Part shown: piece by piece, positions 2,876-61,445 of the stretch | Layout: each line of letters begins with the position of its first letter | Position numbering within the stretch: position 1 is the first letter of the stretch | Notes under the pieces: generated by a model | Seen by the model: only the letters and a program-made list of their open reading frames with translations | Told to the model about the DNA's origin: nothing | Databases searched by the model: none | Assembly: GCA_951406725.2 (NCBI GenBank) | Contig: OX597820.1 | Span: 5,022,001-5,086,000 of the forward strand | DNA: 64,000 bases | Direction of reading: 5' to 3' | From: Octopus vulgaris | Lineage: Eukaryota | Made by a program: the position numbers and the translations under genes

Positions 2876-3046
2876 ATGCTTGAAATAGCAGTCAAAACGT
2901 GCCTCTAAAACCACATTGGATAATTCCGGACCCTGGGTTTCTGGCTTTGTATAAAAGTACTTTGCATTTGTCAAGAGCCAGAAACCCAGGGTCCGGAATT
3001 ATCCAATGTGGTTTTAGAGGTAAGTTTTGACTGCTATTTCAAGCAT
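2876..3046. repeat. Inverted repeat, ~70-bp arms with ~27-nt spacer
   Basis: atgcttgaaatagcagtcaaaac...gggtttctggct versus agccagaaacccagg...ctgctatttcaagcat. Confidence 0.9.
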
Positions 3047-6284: not shown

Positions 6285-6681
6285 TTTTTATATATAAAAG
6301 AGAGGTTGTGTGTCTGTCTCCTACGATTTAGATTCCTAACTACTCCCACATTTTGCGGTGCATTTTAACCAAAACCGGGTATCTTATAGTCGTGATTCAT
6401 ATCGAGCCCTTCTGGGTATTAGCGCGCGTCTACGATGAGTCTACGATTTAAAAAAAAAATTACCATTATTTTTTTCCATTTTAATGCATTTTTTCGCTAT
6501 TATATAAGGGAAGTAACTCTCTAAAAATGTCTACGATGAGTCAACGATTTAAAAAAAAATTTACCGTAATTTTTTTTCCATTTTTAATGCATTTTTTGCT
6601 ATTTTTTGGCTATAACTCTCTAAAAATGCTTATATAGTTATTTCCCTTACAAACCCGAGCAACGCCGGGCGATACTGCTAG
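6285..6681 (+). mobile_element. Non-autonomous Helitron
   Basis: Inserted between A and T without TSD; 3' CCCGAGCAACGCCGGG hairpin plus CTAG; sister copy at 7416-7811. Confidence 0.85.
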
Positions 6682-6770
6682 TTTCATATAAAAGAATATG
6701 TCGTCTATTGACTCTATTAGACATGCTAGCCACTGGGAGAAAATTTCTTTAAATATTTTACCCTGTATAT

Positions 6771-7340: not shown

Positions 7341-7415
7341 TTATCGCCCACCACCATCGCACAATCATAACAGATATTATTAATCAGATATATTGTGTTA
7401 ATCTATATATATATA

Positions 7416-7811
7416 CTAGCAGTATCGCCCGGCGTTGCTCGGGTTGTAAGGGAAATAACTATATAAGCTTTTTTAGAGAGTTATAGCCAAAAAATAGCAA
7501 AAAAATGCATTAAAAATTGAAAAAAAATTAAGGTAAATTTTTTTTTTAAATCGTTGATACATCGTAGATATTTTTAGAGAGTTACTTCCCTTATATAAAA
7601 GCGAAAAAAATGCATTCAAATGGAAAAATATGATGGTAAATTTTTTTTAAATCGTAGACTCATCGTAGACGCGCGCTAATACCCAGAAGGGCTCGATATG
7701 CATCACGACTATAAGATACCCGCTTTTGGTTAAACTGCACGGCAAAATGTGGGAGTAGTTACGAATCTAAATCGAAGGGGACAGACACACAACTTCACTC
7801 TTATATAAAGA
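7416..7811 (-). mobile_element. Non-autonomous Helitron, same subfamily as 6285-6681, inverted
   Basis: Minus strand reads A|TCTTTATATAAGAG...CCCGAGCAACGCCGGGCGATACTGCTAG|T. Confidence 0.9.
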
Positions 7812-9649: not shown

Positions 9650-9955
9650 TATCAACAACAAATCGAGCATTATTCCTTACAGCTGTTTCAATTATACTCA
9701 GTGAATTAAATATTAAGTTCATATTTCTGAGCATAATCTTTTCAGTGAGAAAAATATACCTTTAGATGTTTGGTATGTTTGTTTGTAGATTGATCACAGC
9801 AGACTCTGAGATATGAACTTAATATTTGATTAATTCACTGTGTGTAATTGAAACAGCTGTAAGGTATAATAATCGATTTTTTGTTGATACTCTACCTCTG
9901 GTATTTGAGTACTCTTTTTTCCACCTTGTTTCACGTTTAGGTGCTTACTCCGGTA
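9650..9955. mobile_element. Fold-back pLTR-like element with GAAACAGCTGTA hammerhead half-core
   Basis: Arms ~9650-9730 and ~9804-9889; 9890-9955 is the reverse complement of ~41822-41890. Confidence 0.6.

Positions 9956-10340: not shown

Positions 10341-10344
<4 letters not shown>
10302..10344. repeat. Perfect 18-bp hairpin ending the hammerhead-bearing element at a (TA)n tract
   Basis: tgcccacacggagtccat-agcgata-atggactccgtgtgggca. Confidence 0.9.
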
Positions 10345-10387
<43 letters not shown>

Positions 10388-10389
<2 letters not shown>

Positions 10390-11162
10390 CAATAATAATT
10401 CTCTAAAAGAGATATAGACAGTAACTGCTCGATAACATAAGGGACTAAAGCCATCTGAATATGGCTAGGGACGGGCAGGGTGGTGGGGGTGTTACTGTTG
10501 CATTTAGCCCCAGGCGAACATCGACGTCACCAGAAAGGCTCGACACCGTCACGGTGCCCTTAACCTGCAAAGGAAGCGGAAGCCTACCACACGCCGACGA
10601 TAGGCAATACACCTTGAAACCATGGTCCGTGTGTGGTTTCCGCTTCATCGGGGAATTACCTCCCTTTGCAGGTTAAGGGCACCGTGACGGTGTCGAGCCT
10701 TTCTGGTGACGTCGATGTTCGCCTGGGGCTAAATGCAACAGTAACACCCCCACCACCCTGCCCTGTCCCTAGCCATATTCAGATGGCTTTAGTCCCTTAT
10801 GTTATCGAGCAGTTACTGTCTATATCTCTTTTAGAGAATTATTATTGCTTTCGAACAGATTTTCGAAATCAGCAAATGTATTTTGCTTGAAAATCTATAT
10901 ATGAATATCCTGCAGAGTGAGAATTCGTCGAGGAAGCGGAAGCCTACCACACGCCGACGATAGGCAATACACCTTGAAACCATGGTCCGTGTGTGGTTTC
11001 CGCTTCATCGGGGAATTACCTCCCTTTGCAGGTTAAGGGCACCGTGACGGTGTCGAGCCTTTCTGGTGACGTCGATGTTCGCCTGGGGCTAAATGCAACA
11101 GTAACACCCCCACCACCCTGCCCTGTCCCTAGCCATATTCAGATGGCTTTAGTCCCTTATGT

Positions 11163-11165
<3 letters not shown>
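10388..11165. mobile_element. 360-bp-unit structured non-coding element: 1.65 tandem units plus an inverted partial unit, in (TA)n
   Basis: 10571-10805 equals 10931-11165 (period 360); 10388-10573 is the inverted copy of 10663-10849; homologue at 54992-55360. Confidence 0.85.
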
Positions 11166-11198
<33 letters not shown>

Positions 11199-11243
11199 TG
11201 GGACAAGAATGCAAAACGTCCGGAAAACAAGGTGATACAAAAA

Positions 11244-11444
11244 GGGACAACAAAACATCCACATAGACGATACAAAAAAAAGCAAGGACGGGTCATTCGA
11301 AGCTTTTCTACCTCAGTCAAGAACTGGATCATCCTCGCAATTTCGGCTGTGCGAGGATGATCTGGTTCTTGACTGAGGATAGAAAGCTACGAATGACCCG
11401 TCCTTGTTTTTTTTGTATCGTCTATGTAGATGTTCTGTTGTCCC
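11244..11444. repeat. Fold-back element (~95-bp arms) with minimal hammerhead-like motif
   Basis: Arms 11244-11339 and 11350-11444; CTGAGGA-ta-GAAA-GC-TA at 11373-11389; flanked by (TA)n. Confidence 0.7.
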
Positions 11445-11453
11445 ATTTTGCAT

Positions 11454-11538
<85 letters not shown>

Positions 11539-15030: not shown

Positions 15031-16650
15031 TCTTTTCTTTTCTGCAGTTTCAGCTCAGAGCTGCGGCCATGCTGATGCACCGCCATTTTGCTACACTGTT
15101 ATTACTGAGAGCCTCCTCTAATATGTGGCACTTGGTGAAGAATGGATTTTGATATAGCTACTCTCATTTGCACCTCTTGCCGTGAGGTAGGTTCATCTGG
15201 GACTCTCGACAGGGAGATGTCCAGCTTTGATTTAAAAACCGCTACATCTATTTTGTGCAGGTTCCTCAGGCTCTTTCGGTGAATATTAAAAAGCTGTGGG
15301 CCCTTGAAACCCAGGCTGTTCCAGTAACTGGTCCTGAAGCGCGATAGTGTTGCTGGGATCTTTGGCACTATGCAGTGTCGTCCCGTTCTGGCATTGGTGT
15401 AGCTTCCAATGCCAAAATTTGGCACAATTCCTTCCAGGATCTTCCAGATATATACTACTGCATACTTCTCTCCAGGGAGTAAAGTCTTAGCTATTTCAAC
15501 CTTTCCCAGTAGCTGAGCTGTTGCAAAGAGACGATCTTTGGGAATCTTCTCTGGATTGCTTCAAGGCCTGCTGTTAATTTCACACTGGTGGGTGACCATA
15601 TCTGTGAGCAGTGATCCAGGCGACTGAAGACGAATGTCCTCCGGAGGACCATTATTGTTTCCTTATCTCTGGTTCTGAATATTCTCAGGATTCATCCAGT
15701 CAGTCGTCTGCACTTTTTCGCCATCCTGGTAATGTGTACTTGGGAAGAGGTATCATCACTCATGTCGATACCCAGGTTCCTCACTGATTTAGACTCTGGG
15801 ATTGAAATTCCCTGTGGACCAGTGTACCCTGTAAGTTTCATATTCAGTTTTGGACGCTGGTAGCGCAGGGCTTGGAATTTCTCAGCATTAAACTGCATAT
15901 TATTATCCTCAGTCCATCTGTAAATTGAGTCCAACTCCTGCTGCAGATGTGCAACATCGCTGGGGTTCTGTATTTTCTGCGAGACTTCCGTATCGTCTGC
16001 GTAGCTTGCAAAGGTGGCTATCTGGGCACTTGAGGGCATATCTGGGAGGGCCACTATAAAAAGCAGTGGTCCCAAGACAGTGCCCTGTGGAACACCGTTC
16101 ACTATTTGTGTGTTCATAGAGGTGACTCCATTAACCACTACTGCCTGACTCGTATCTTTCAGGAAGTCATGTAACCACACTCCAAGTTTTCCAGCTATGC
16201 CAAGGTCATGCAGTTTGTGGCGTATCATACCATGATCCACCTTGTCAAAAGCTTTTGCAAAATCAAGGCATCCACATTTGATTTGTTGAGTAACTGCCTC
16301 AACACCCAGTCATAATGTTGCAAGAGCTGGATCAGGCAGCTTCTACCTGGTCGAAAACCATGCTGGGTATCACTCAGCAAATTATTTCCCTCAAGGAATG
16401 CGATTAGTTACTCTCTGACTATCCATTCCATGACTTTGCTGATGTGTGAAGTCAGAGAGATAGGCCTATAGTTTTTGGCTTCTGCTCTACTGCCCCCTTT
16501 ATGTATTGGGCATATTATTCCCTCCTTCAGCTTGCTTGGCAGTTTGCCATTCGCAAGAAAGCTCTGGAAGAGAATCTTGAGGGGTTTTGCCAAGGCATGC
16601 ATGCATGATTTGAGGAGGATGGCTGGGAAACCATCAGGACCAGCAGTTTT
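15031..16650 (-). mobile_element. CR1-clade LINE, 5'-truncated, decayed ORF2 reverse transcriptase with intact 3' tail
   Basis: Motifs AGPDG, NYRPISLTS, QHGFRPGRSC, DFAKAFDKVDH, GVPQGTVLGPLLF, YADD; frameshifts; short 3' UTR ending in (GAAAA) repeats. Confidence 0.9.
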
Positions 16651-19410: not shown

Positions 19411-19699
19411 CTATATAGAATGTAGATAGAGTAATAAATGTATATAATCCAGACCTGAAGATTGGGAGTACGTCGAACTAATTGAGTATTGAAACTAGAG
19501 ACCTTATATCTCAAAAATACCGACATACTGTCATGAAAAACGTGTTGTCTTTAAAATGGAAACTCTGGGATTCTGAATAGATATAGTAAGTATCATATTT
19601 AATATTTGATGGCTCGGTCGGGTATAATATCTGTGAATGTTGATTGAGTAGAGGGGGGGTTCTGTCTCTAAAACTACTTACATATATATATATATATAA

Positions 19700-19757
19700 A
19701 ATTTAAATTAAGCAGAAAATGGAGAAATTATCTCCATTTTCTGCTTAATTAAAATTT
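19700..19757. repeat. ~26-bp terminal hairpin of a TA-embedded element
   Basis: aattaagcagaaaatggaga-aatta-tctccattttctgcttaatt. Confidence 0.8.
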
Positions 19758-19918: not shown

Positions 19919-19970
<52 letters not shown>

Positions 19971-20063
19971 ATCCAAACAAGAAAGCACAAAAAACACAAC
20001 ATCGCGAGGACGTGGAACAGCTATAGTATTATTGGACGCTCAGGAAAGAAGGAAAGAAGGAGG

Positions 20064-20098
20064 GTTTAACGTTTCGAGCGGAGCTCTTCGTCGGAAAC
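20064..20098 (-). ncRNA. Minimal hammerhead motif (U4>C) within TA-embedded element 19965-20140
   Basis: gttt-CCGACGA-a-GAGC-tcc-GCTC-GAAA-CG-TT|aaac; palindrome AACGTT. Confidence 0.65.
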
Positions 20099-20135
20099 AT
20101 AGGAGAAGGAAAGATGCAGAGAAGGGAAGACAGAG

Positions 20136-20185
<50 letters not shown>

Positions 20186-20511: not shown

Positions 20512-20645
20512 GAAACTATCGACTTCACTTAAGCATTTACTATTTGGTGTCAGCATCTTCGTTGCACCAACTACGTCCGAAACTATCGACTTCACTTAAG
20601 CATTTACTATTTGGTGTCAGCATCTTCGTTGCACCAACTACGTCC
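20512..20645. repeat. Exact 67-bp tandem duplication
   Basis: gaaactatcgac...ctacgtcc twice (20512-20578, 20579-20645). Confidence 0.9.
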
Positions 20646-41760: not shown

Positions 41761-41816
<56 letters not shown>

Positions 41817-41819
41817 TGT

Positions 41820-42007
41820 ATATACCTGAGTAAACACATAAATGTGAAACAAGGTGGAAAAAAGAGTACTCAAATACCAGTGGTAGAGTAATATGCTTTA
41901 TTTAAAGCAGCAGAAAATTCAACAAAACCTGTTACTCTGAGTTTCACGTTGCAACGGGAAACTCAGAGTAACAAGTTTTGTTGAATTTTCTGCTGCTTTA
42001 AATAAAG
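41820..42007. mobile_element. Fold-back pLTR-like fragment in (TA)n (50-bp arms) retaining GAAACTCAGAGTA half-core
   Basis: Arms 41896-41945 and 41957-42007; helix III sequence as in the Penelope pLTR at 46969. Confidence 0.7.
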
Positions 42008-42115
42008 TATATATATATATATATATATACTTTTGCTCTTTTACTTGTTTCAGTCATTTGACTGCGGCCATGCTGGAGCACCGCCTTTATATATATATAC
42101 ACACATACATATATA

Positions 42116-45444: not shown

Positions 45445-45501
<57 letters not shown>

Positions 45502-45530
45502 ATACAATATGTTACATTACTCGGTAGTCA

Positions 45531-45593
45531 AGATAAAACTCTGAGTTTCAGATGCCGAAGTGGAAATCCACAGCACCATCTCTTCGGTTATCT
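45531..45593 (-). ncRNA. Hammerhead motif in the downstream pLTR (sense to the PLE ORF)
   Basis: Mirror copy of 46925-46987. Confidence 0.7.
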
Positions 45594-45797
45594 GGCTATT
45601 TGAAAACGTTATGAAAAAATACCGTTAAATAAAGGGAAATTACTCTGTTATAACTCTGCTTGCCTGCGTACTTATACATCGCTCGCATTTTTCGTCATAA
45701 AAACTATATGAAAATACATAAAAAATATATAAAAAATATATAAAAAATATATAAAAATATATAAATTCTTCTTGGGACATAACATAGAAAGCATGTT

Positions 45798-46806
45798 CTA
45801 TCTGTTTTCTTTAGGGGACCAAAAACGTAACAGAAATTTAGTCACATGAGGGCATGATCCGAAAAGCTCTGTCCTTGTATTTAGACATGTAGTAGGGTCT
45901 AAGCTGCTTTTCCAGATAAGCCATCTCTCCATGTCGCATAGACCGCACCTTCCGCTGCCGTTAGTATAGGGCTTACATCTGGCCAAAATCTTCCATTGTA
46001 TGTTATAATCGACACCTTTATCTCTTAAAGACCAAATAAGATTAGACAATTGTGTCGCTTTTCTTTTGTTCCAGTGCCTAAAGCTCAAAGTGTGGTTATT
46101 GAACCTGGCCTTGAAATTACCCTCTGTAAGGCCCACGTATTTCTTCGTCGAAACGGTGTCTTTAGTGGTTATAGAGTTTACGGTAGCTTCATATATGATG
46201 GTCTTGGACATGCAAGCTCCATTTAGCGGGCACAATTCTTTATTCCTGCATGAAGAGCTGTTTTCTTCTTGTGTTTTTTGTATGTTATGTTTGATTATGT
46301 TTTTAAAATTGGTAGTTGAACTAAAACTAATTTTTAAATTGTGTCTATTGAAGAGTTTCCTATAAGTATGGTTAACTGGAAAATGTCTATCTATCAGTGC
46401 TAGGAAATATTTACCTATATTGAAGGCCACCTCGGGTGAGTAAGGGGCGTAAACCAGATGACCTTCCTATTTCTATTATTCCTTTTCCTTACTGTTGGGC
46501 TAGTGATAGGTGTATATTTTATTTCATCGCTAAAACGACTATCTTTTAAAGCCTTATTATAAACTAGGGCAACGCTATTGAAGATGTCCTCATCAGATGA
46601 GAGGCTAGAAATCCTCTTACTAATATTTTTAACTAAATTTTTGAATACTATAGGGGGATGGCATGAACCTACATTAATATAACTTAGTCTATCATTGGGC
46701 TTCCTATAAGGCTTATAAATATTCTTATTAAGATCTAAGGAAACGTCTAAGAAATTGACAACCGTCGGGTTAGTATCTATAGTTATACTAAGTCCGAAGT
46801 GTTTCA
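45798..46806 (-). pseudogene. PLE RT thumb/linker plus C-terminal GIY-YIG endonuclease, one frameshift near 46440
   Basis: VVNFLDVSLDL..YKPYRKPND..YINVGSCHPP; CRNKELCPLNGAC..IIYEATV..YVGLTEGNFKARFNNH..CGLCDME..LNTRTEL..CPH. Confidence 0.9.
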
Positions 46807-46924
46807 TCATATAATTTTTATGACGAAAAATGCGAGCGATGTATAAGTACGCAGGCAAGCAGAGTTATAACAGAGTAATTTCCCTTTATTTAACGGTATT
46901 TTTTCATAACGTTTTCAAATAGCC

Positions 46925-46987
46925 AGATAACCGAAGAGATGGTGTTGTGGATTTCCACTTCGGCATCTGAAACTCAGAGTTTTATCT
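46925..46987 (+). ncRNA. Hammerhead motif in the inverted pLTR (U4>C variant)
   Basis: agataa-CCGAAGA-gatg...catc-t-GAAA-CTCAGAG-TT|ttatct; 6-bp helix I. Confidence 0.72.
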
Positions 46988-47083
46988 TGACTACCGAGTA
47001 ATGTAACATATTGTATAGATAAATTTCCTCTATTTACATAATATTGAGGTCTCTTTCTTTCTTTTGTTATCTTACTGTTTTAT

Positions 47084-47135
<52 letters not shown>

Positions 47136-54931: not shown

Positions 54932-54990
<59 letters not shown>

Positions 54991-54991
54991 G

Positions 54992-55357
54992 GGGGGTGTT
55001 ACTGATGCATTTAGCCCCAGGCGATCATCAACGTCACCAGGAGGGCTGACGCCATCAAGGCGTCCTCTAGCCTGCAAAGGGAGATCATTCCCCGAAGAAG
55101 CGGATGCCACATACGGACCTAGGTTTCAAGGTGTTTGCCTATTATCAACGTATGGCAGGCACCGCCCCTCGACGAACGACTCTCTGTGCAGGCTATATAT
55201 AAAGATTTTCACAGTAAATACATTTACTGATGTAGAAAATCCGTTCGACAGCAATAATAATTCTCTAAACGAGATATAGACAGTAACTGCTCCATAACAT
55301 AAGGGACGTTAGCCATCTGAATGTGGCTAGGGACAGGGCAGGGCGGTGGGGGTGTTA

Positions 55358-55360
<3 letters not shown>
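54992..55360. mobile_element. Circularly permuted 356-bp monomer of the 360-bp family with 13-nt terminal redundancy
   Basis: gggggtgttactg at 54992-55004 and 55348-55360; colinear with the 10.4-11.2 kb unit; TA/TG flanks. Confidence 0.85.
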
Positions 55361-55394
<34 letters not shown>

Positions 55395-55398
<4 letters not shown>

Positions 55399-55586
55399 AG
55401 TGGCTGTGTGGTAAGTAGCTTGCTTCCCAACCACATGGTTCCGGGTTCAGCCCCACTGCGTGGCACCTTGGGCAAGTTTCTTCTACTATAGCCTCAGGCC
55501 GACCAAAGCCTTGTGAGTGGATTTGGTTGACGGAAACTGAAAGAAGCCCGTCGTATATATCTATATATGTATGTATATATTTATAT

Positions 55587-55634
<48 letters not shown>

Positions 55635-55825
55635 TGTTTCTGTGTTTGTTCCCCCAACATCGCTTGACAACCGATGCTGGTGTGTTTACGTCCCGTAACT
55701 TAGCGGTTCGGCAAAAGAGACCGATAAAATAAGTGCTAGGCTTACAAAGAATAAGTCCTGGGGTCGATTTACTCGACTGAAGGCGGTGCTCCAGCATGGT
55801 CACAATCAAATGACTGAAATAAGTA
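55395..55825 (+). mobile_element. SINE family A, full length
   Basis: Head, internal (TG)n and tail. Confidence 0.92.
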
Positions 55826-55839
55826 ATATATATATATAT

Positions 55840-60109: not shown

Positions 60110-60209
60110 NNNNNNNNNNNNNNNNNNNNNNNNNNNNNNNNNNNNNNNNNNNNNNNNNNNNNNNNNNNNNNNNNNNNNNNNNNNNNNNNNNNNNNNNNNN
60201 NNNNNNNNN
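60110..60209. other. Assembly gap (100 N)
   Basis: Run of N. Confidence 1.
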
Positions 60210-60500
60210 TTTAAGATCTTCCTGTCACTGTCCACTTGAACTGCAGATACCAGGACGCTCTTATCGGTGTTTTTGTGCGGCTAACCCGCTACAATCCACG
60301 GTCAATTTTCTCTCCTATGAAGGGTTACGCTCTACGATGCATCACTATAACCCACAACACTTTGCAACTGTTTATGCGTTCACCTGTACACACACGTTAA
60401 TTCTATTCCTGTCGGTGAGTGGGGGGAGAGTCTAATCAAGATAGTAATTTTAAAATGATTAATAGCGACAGAAGCAATATTAATAATCTTTATATCCAAC

Positions 60501-60636
60501 TTAACGTGGATGTTGTGCTAGAGCACCGAATAATGCGGTATCTACATTGAGAAGACCTCGCATATGCGTTCTTAAGAGAGGTTTTCTCAAAGTAAATAAC
60601 GCGTTATTCGGTATTCTATCACAACATCCACGTTAA
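60501..60636. repeat. Imperfect inverted repeat, ~59-bp arms
   Basis: ttaacgtggatgttgtg...gagaagacctc versus gaggttttctc...cacaacatccacgttaa. Confidence 0.85.
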
Positions 60637-61445
60637 CTTAGATTTAGGCATTTAAGTGTTTTTGCTGTCCGTGCGTGTGCATATGTGCAATGTTTTCCTC
60701 TTCGAAGTACTCGTTTGTATGGATGTGTCTCTGTGTGGTTATTTCTATATGTATATGTGCGTATGTCTACAATTGTGGTTTGTTTATTTTCTAAATATGA
60801 TTAGAAGAATATCGAGACGAGAGAGCTGTAAATATTTGACTTTTGTACATTCGGAGTGTGAACAAAAAACTGTACAGACACAGCAAGGTGTTCAATGGGA
60901 TTAAACAAACAAAACAGACAAACAAAAAGCGGAGACAGAAAGACAAACAGTACCAGTTTTGGTCTTCTTAATCTTTTTTTAAAAAATAATTCTTTGAATT
61001 CCTGCTGTAAAGAATGAATTGGTTTCTCACAAAGAAACAAAGACCCATTTCTGGAATTTAAATAACAGCAACAGTGAATATCAGAGAAGTCTTGTATATT
61101 TTGAATATGTAAACTGAGCGTTGGTTCACCTCCCTGTATCTCTGTCTGTGTGTGGCTATGCATAGATCTGTGTATGTGCTTGTGTGAGTGTACGAAGTAT
61201 GTCTCTGCATGTGTGTATGTATGAGCATCTCGTATGTGCCTATGCGTTTGAATGTACGTATATATAAAAAACAAAATAAATAAATAAATAGAAAGTGGGT
61301 AAAAGAATAGAAATATATAAATCACAAACATAAACATTCATATATAAATAGACATTTGTCATGTATGGAAACTGAAGCATTAAGCTGGGCGACAGGTTAA
61401 ATTTTAACACACACACACACACACTAGATGTATGTATGCCTGTCT

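Follow-up and report, generated by a model that had tools for sequence, protein, structure and literature searches.

A 64,000-nt stretch of Octopus vulgaris DNA (contig OX597820.1; hereafter the window) carries a non-coding unit of about 360 nt in tandem, inverted and permuted forms, and the question it raises is what kind of element this unit is, whether it encodes a ribozyme, and how it reached its present sites. An initial annotation had described a period-360 tandem (10571-10805 = 10931-11165). BLAST and a base-wise comparison established that this duplication is exact, with 235 nt and no mismatch, so the main arm of the locus (locus 1) comprises 1.65 units (Table 1). The inverted partial unit reported beside it was also recovered, and it joins the main arm through a 3-nt AGG microhomology (10571-10573). 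A second, diverged monomer (locus 2), said to begin at a different point of the unit and to carry a 13-nt terminal redundancy, has both properties: the redundancy is exact, the identity to the unit is 84.8% over 381 columns, the unit there measures ~356 nt, and its orientation is opposite to that of the long arm of locus 1.

Table 1. Positions in the window of the two loci, their flanks and the predicted RNA features of the unit.
Feature	Position	Strand	Basis
Main arm on the hammerhead (sense) strand, holding 1.65 copies of the 360-nt unit head to tail	10571..11165	+	sequence comparison
5'-truncated arm in inverted orientation; equals 10664-10849 reverse-complemented, apart from a 1-nt deletion	10389..10573	-	sequence comparison
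One-sided tail of ~44 nt (unit 10806-10849) at a single end of the locus-1 insertion	10389..10431	-	
Target microsatellite to the left of locus 1, (AT)n	10344..10388		
Target microsatellite to the right of locus 1, (TA)n	11163..11188		
Type I hammerhead, copy 1; core CCGACGA (U4C) at 10594-10600; helix I 10588-93/10628-33; predicted cut after 10627	10588..10633	+	descriptor scan
Type I hammerhead, copy 2; identical to copy 1, 360 nt downstream; core from 10954; predicted cut after 10987	10948..10993	+	
Predicted 360-nt monomer from double cleavage (inferred)	10628..10987	+	circular fold z -5.0
125-nt rod with CCUGCA/UGCAGG base, extending helix I	10909..11033	+	RNAalifold consensus
Conserved segment, continuing in 10806-10850; holds all three observed 3' ends and the AC-rich tract	11070..11165	+	
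Locus 2, permuted monomer of ~1.05 units between (TA)/(GT) and (TA)18	54988..55361	-	
Locus-2 hammerhead, type I; UUGAUAA core with U3-A8 covariation at 55148-55142; loop 3 CUAG; GUC triplet; predicted cut after 55116	55110..55154	-	

The ends of both loci all adjoin TA or GT microsatellites, in line with the TA-type surroundings first described; the window as a whole is rich in microsatellites, and TA arrays of at least five units make up 3.5% of it. The earlier statement that neither locus has a credible ORF also held, the longest ATG-initiated frame around the circularised unit being 50 aa on either strand. The GC content of the unit is 46.7% (10628-10987, 360 nt). It is scarcely credible that the tandem and the inversion are products of the assembly: the duplicated 235 nt are 100% identical and PLE (Penelope-like element) structures of this kind are described as troubling assemblers (PMC8557442), but the head-to-tail joint and the end at 10849 recur in independent public runs, and the inverted arm has a 1-nt deletion of its own.

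Both strands of the 64-kb window were then scanned with a hammerhead descriptor that allowed one core change and used the core boxes of the type I motif. Three matches were obtained, all belonging to this family (10594-10627, 10954-10987 and, on the minus strand, 55148-55116), and none in 20 shuffles. A looser scan returned seven rows, namely these three, two copies in the pLTR of a PLE, one weak motif and an alternative reading of locus 2; its false positives amounted to 22 matches in 50 shuffles, four of them with a helix I of at least 6 bp, against five in the real window. All three copies (3/3) have a helix I of 6 bp, a helix II of 3 bp and a helix III of 2 bp, together with GAAA and GUC, so that three helices surround the core boxes in type I order with an NUH triplet. 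In copy 1, helix II opens with a U·U followed by its 3 bp, and GAAA, the 2-bp helix III with a palindromic CAUG loop and the GUC triplet complete the motif.

These matches contradict the earlier view that no intact hammerhead core is visible, and they do not support the suggestion that the family may lack a ribozyme or use an unrecognised one: at the tip of the rod sits a type I hammerhead of variant core, which is recognisable in every unit-length copy of the window. The finding therefore falls inside the class of animal non-LTR retrozymes and non-autonomous PLEs. That the unit depends on a new ribozyme, or on none, is very improbable given a hammerhead once per unit in all three copies covering the site, even though the conserved 3' segment contains hairpins of unassigned role and Rfam gave no match. 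In the window, Rfam produced no gathering match and no hammerhead even at E<=10; around both loci it returned only chance-level miRNA, lncRNA and snoRNA matches (E 0.19-8.8).

The cores themselves depart from the consensus. All three window copies fail the strict CUGANGA pattern (C3 U4 G5 A6 N7 G8 A9), and no canonical CUGANGA core occurs among the variants listed in four public runs. The letters found, U4C at locus 1, U3-A8 at locus 2 and the U10.1·U11.1 mismatch, are all described natural variants. According to Perreault et al. 2011 (PMC3088659), U3-A8 is a natural covariation that retains activity, no mismatch is tolerated better than U10.1·U11.1, and activity in vitro is considerably reduced with U4C, yet enough for viroid infectivity. 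A literature search for C3U found no activity data on U3·G8. The CG-to-TA change in the locus-2 core could be CpG decay instead of selection.

The CAUG and CUAG loops each turn helix III into an 8-nt palindrome, and this palindromy is kept across a 2-nt change, an outcome shared by 6 of the 54 possible two-letter changes. Computed homodimer duplexes reach -12.6 and -12.8 kcal/mol, and the CAUG/CUAG heterodimer -6.3. When the monomer was folded under constraint, helix I was kept, the core was mispaired in the MFE structure and helix II was not recovered. Judged by its sequence, a helix III of 2 bp closed by a palindromic tetraloop is a dimer-type design. It is probable that the unit is a non-LTR retrozyme or non-autonomous PLE with a working dimer-type ribozyme, at least in the subfamily represented by locus 1.

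Between copies that are 85% identical, GAAAC, GUC, G5, A6, A9, the helix I pairing and the loop-3 palindromy are all kept, which argues against a decayed, relic hammerhead. On that alternative account, the unit would be a non-autonomous PLE that travels as linear read-through RNA without being cleaved, and drift would explain the core variants (U4C, U3·G8, U3-A8). It draws on the lack of a canonical core in any copy seen and on the hammerhead region itself, where the substitutions (8/46) are no less dense than in the neighbouring rod and hairpins. Published work adds to it, since most predicted Xenopus retrozyme dimers were inactive (8/9 without cleavage in vitro and 1/9 cleaved; bioRxiv 2026.07.22.740005), and PAc inserted in vitro without any need for cleavage, none of the reads ending at its cut site (PMC11167929). 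We nevertheless consider a relic unlikely, because U4C and U3-A8 are documented as active natural variants (PMC3088659, PMC4209133) and U4C recurs in the unrelated pLTR of a PLE in the same window.

To analyze the structure around the hammerhead, an RNAalifold consensus of the two copies was computed. It contains 98 pairs; four show double changes, and in nine a change on one side leaves a G·U on the hammerhead strand. It also includes the ~125-nt rod closed by CCTGCA/TGCAGG that had been proposed. Because this structure was fitted to both copies, single-copy structures were tested too. With the locus-1 structure, double changes number three where the null averages 1.3 (P=0.14), and broken pairs are fewer than in the null (P=0.035); with the locus-2 structure, double changes number four where the null averages 1.6 (P=0.06), and broken pairs are again fewer (P=0.024). 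The compensatory pairs named in the initial annotation thus stood, as part of helix I and its extension, the rod, and the covariation check on the two copies found an excess of preserved pairing, but the double changes themselves were not significant with two sequences. Covariation between the two copies is accordingly a hint. One named hairpin, GACACC/GGTGCC, has an A·C mismatch as written, which on the hammerhead strand becomes G·U. That strand also folds better, with circular z values of -5.0 and -4.4 compared with -3.7 and -3.2 for the other strand.

The unit is present in 20 of 24 listed public runs, which come from 9 studies and bear 5 organism labels; none is recorded as RNA, and 14 of the unit-containing runs are RNA only by guess. 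Four were examined at contig level: X1 and X2 (RNA guessed; two studies) and X18 and X19 (genome-scale). X1 and X2 each contain one self-closing 390-nt contig, consisting of the whole unit plus an overlap, with 0 and 1 differences from locus 1; in such closed contigs a circle and a tandem array look alike, and X1, whose contig is near-identical to locus 1, may relate to the source of the window DNA. Contigs bridge the head-to-tail joint, with no ORF between, in 4/4 runs. Since the joint is also present in the genome-scale X18 and X19, it supports a head-to-tail arrangement without an ORF, not a circle. The listing of molecule ends for these runs was empty, in contig data where RNA ends do not appear. 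DNA pattern scans gave no match in viral contigs or in two metagenome scans.

The runs also differ in their cores. By depth, positions 10954/10955 read mostly TT in X18 (8557/9096) and X19 (582/744), with no listed change at 10958/10959, so UUGACGA with a U3·G8 wobble is the majority core there; X1 and X2 read CC only. This is a weak hint of an excess of the U4C subfamily in RNA, in a comparison where the runs were picked by likeness to the locus-1 variant and contigs drop variants. RNA editing was considered as a rescue of U4C; the X1 and X2 contigs read C at 10955, and thus nothing points to it.

In X18 and X19, where 850 and 373 contigs match the unit, depth over the segment formed by 11070-11162 and 10806-10850 exceeds that of the hammerhead part by one to two orders of magnitude. 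Contig depth is not copy number, and this far greater depth in genome-scale runs makes it likely that the conserved segment is common to a larger family. Between locus 1 and locus 2, 10738-10849 shows 7 substitutions in 112 nt, and the conserved 3' segment has hairpins. The depth bears on the possibility that the unit is the ordinary pLTR or 3' UTR of an autonomous Hydra-type PLE, the loci being heavily 5'-truncated copies with local duplication. The insertion geometry and hammerhead style are indeed as in PLE pLTRs, the 11070-10850 segment is likely common to a far deeper family, and 72 loose ends exist beyond the 18 listed. What lies upstream of the unit is however the unit itself (1.65 copies at locus 1; a full circle in the 390-nt contigs), the unit has no ORF, and among the 18 loose ends listed none was identified by eye as ORF sequence, most resembling family variants or (TA)n. 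We therefore regard an ordinary pLTR as quite improbable. The unit also falls outside the autonomous PLEs of the Hydra clade, as it has no ORF with RT and C-terminal GIY-YIG between pLTRs.

The candidate retrozyme carries the marks of PLE insertion. Locus 1 combines an inverted 5'-truncated copy, a one-sided tail and a microsatellite target; an inverted copy truncated at 5' and a tail of 30-40 bp on one side are described for PLEs, and Hydra elements are described as inserting in (TA)n (PMC8557442). Read on the hammerhead strand, locus 1 has a 3' end on each outer side, and the two lie 44 nt from each other along the unit; the outer end of the inverted arm (10389) would be an RT start site; three X19 contigs stop at 10849, the same point, and continue into (TA)n. 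An end of locus 2 falls in the AC-rich tract of the unit. These positions recall the biochemistry of a purified PLE protein, which cleaves both DNA strands and extends them, starting at two neighbouring internal sites in an AC-rich stem loop that define the PLE tail (Frangieh et al., PMC11167929). The hammerhead of that PLE is described in the same work as protein-assisted. The tail label used in Table 1 follows this concept (PMC8557442 and PMC11167929).

The window contains a PLE of the corresponding type. The element at 45500-47084 (minus strand) is 5'-truncated, frameshifted, Hydra-type and embedded in TA repeats. It retains an RT tail (46415-46864) and a GIY-YIG domain (45798-46466; Pfam match below cut-off, E=0.009), a Hydra-type linker and CxxC/CxH motifs, and by eye 61/84 residues of one block match Hydra-1_Obim, a likeness that suggests an octopus as host; a protein search of its C-terminal fragment against longer proteins gave no match. 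A 212-nt inverted pLTR and a ~64-nt tail repeat the geometry of locus 1, and hammerhead-like motifs with a U4C core occur in both arms (45587-45537, minus strand; 46931-46981, plus strand). The inversion-plus-tail geometry and U4C cores shared by this element and locus 1 support the PLE reading. BLAST detected no similarity between the unit and the pLTR of this element, which thus shows the type of machinery, not the partner. The earlier suggestion of mobilisation by a Penelope-type RT is upheld as likely, since inversion, tail and TA targets are all seen at the loci; more specifically, the reverse transcriptase/endonuclease of a Hydra-clade PLE likely copies the unit into TA microsatellites.

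Several other parts of the window resemble PLE debris or carry further repeats. A TA-flanked 170-nt piece (19967-20137, minus strand) has a minimal hammerhead-like motif with a U4C core (20094-20068), whose helix I of only 4 bp is a level also reached in shuffles. A TA-flanked palindrome at 41815-42012 contains the 3' half of a Hydra-type hammerhead and a one-sided tail that recurs at 9890-9955 (68 nt, 92.6%); both are likely inverted PLE 3' fragments. Head-to-head palindromes unrelated in sequence to the unit, several of them beside TA arrays, lie at 2876-3046, 9650-9889, 11234-11454, 60491-60646 and 19699-19757 and are possibly more PLE-type inverted fragments. Two 400-nt inverted repeats (6291-6690 and 7408-7807) are 93% identical and ~700 nt apart, an exact 67-nt tandem duplication occupies 20512-20645, non-LTR retrotransposon fragments occur at 15102-16309 on the minus strand (RVT_1 match for 15695-16309, E=5.5e-19), and a run of N marks an assembly gap at ~60110-60214. 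An abundant dispersed repeat, present at 55397-55830 and many other places, presumably resembles a tRNA-derived SINE. ARAGORN found no tRNA gene, and a bacterial promoter/terminator scan stayed at chance level and is irrelevant to an animal locus.

A mechanism that would account for both loci can be outlined. The plus strand of tandem loci such as locus 1 would be transcribed, and two hammerheads 360 nt apart would pair through their palindromic ACCAUGGU helix III. Slow cuts after GUC (10627, 10987), possibly helped by a PLE protein, would free the 360-nt monomer, which a host ligase would close into a circle. The Hydra PLE enzyme would nick (TA)n on both strands and prime cDNA internally at 10805 and 10849, positions separated by 44 nt, and the two cDNAs would join head-to-head through the AGG microhomology to give locus 1. 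The 1.05-mer of locus 2 would instead result from a single pass that started in the AC-rich tract and went once round a circular or dimeric template.

Animal non-LTR retrozymes are tandem repeats of 150-450 bp with type I hammerheads, expressed as circles, those of Mytilus mussels measuring 350-390 bp (PMC7229834), and Li, Clavereau & Pollet tie retrozymes to PLE pLTRs (bioRxiv 10.64898/2026.07.22.740005). The octopus unit is likewise a short head-to-tail repeat within 150-450 bp, with GC below 50%, no ORF and one type I hammerhead, of variant core, per unit in at least two consecutive units (10594, 10954). Like the Mytilus repeats and the axolotl Rtz_353, it is by sequence a non-coding tandem of a few hundred nucleotides, and its monomeric and tandem copies at two loci of the window recall the monomers and dimers that retrozymes have dispersed in genomes. 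Its 2-bp helix III with a tetraloop and its U·U at the base of helix II are those of axolotl HHR_Amex2, for which a 2-bp helix III and this U·U are reported (PMC7229834). Unlike these retrozymes, it shows no canonical core in any copy seen (the variants being U4C, U3-A8 and U3·G8), and its insertions bear the full PLE signature of head-to-head inversion, one-sided tail and TA targeting. The type I order and tandem units separate it from plant-type retrozymes, which have LTRs and a type III hammerhead.

With Hydra-clade PLEs, including Hydra-1_Obim, the unit shares (TA)n insertion and an inverted 5'-truncated copy, as well as a hammerhead near the 3' end with a palindromic helix III and often a U·U opening helix II (PMC8557442), but it lacks their RT/GIY-YIG ORF and has 360 nt where they have 2-3 kb. 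By eye, the U·U at the helix II base was counted in 14/26 Hydra rows of File S2 of PMC8557442; the CUGA core is present in all published rows (26/26), which had been retrieved by means of a canonical descriptor. No unit motif of at least 11 nt was found in the PMC8557442 supplement. The dimer-type helix III, the palindromic loop 3 and the U3-A8 pair are also features of PLE minimal hammerheads, U3-A8 being known from Schistosoma PLEs; low, dimer-dependent cleavage is reported in the same work (Cervera & de la Peña 2014, PMC4209133). In contrast to the long helix II and short helix I described there, helix II of the unit has 3 bp after the U·U and its helix I is long, extended into the 125-nt rod. 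The U4C substitution is the one known from a viroid variant cited in PMC3088659; rare in viroids according to that source, it occurs within this one window both in a subfamily of the candidate retrozyme and in the pLTR of an unrelated PLE.

The class to which the unit is assigned is already known; what is new is its non-consensus cores together with clear Hydra-type insertion footprints. Literature searches (octopus retrozyme; C3U) returned no description of the family, which does not prove its absence from print or from Repbase/Dfam. All observations could be joined into one broader account, which as a whole we hold to be doubtful: a cephalopod retrozyme family would run on hammerheads outside the consensus core (U4C, U3·G8, U3-A8), with U4C shared with co-resident Hydra PLEs as a lineage-wide, probably protein-assisted ribozyme missed by Rfam and standard descriptors; orthogonal loop-3 palindromes (CAUG vs CUAG) would keep subfamilies apart, and a genomically minor U4C subfamily would accumulate as a 360-nt circular RNA.

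PLEs have been proposed as the movers of retrozymes from co-occurrence and pLTR similarity (PMC7229834; bioRxiv 10.64898/2026.07.22.740005). In the octopus window it is the insertions that bear the inversion, the tail and the TA targets of PLEs, and this points to the Hydra clade; locus 1 constitutes a natural, ready-made dimer. If the broader account is true, locus 1 and locus 2 would directly record how a PLE enzyme primes on two strands and copies a circle once round. One family with three variants of the core, beside a PLE that also has U4C, suggests that searches built on the consensus miss part of these ribozymes in this lineage.
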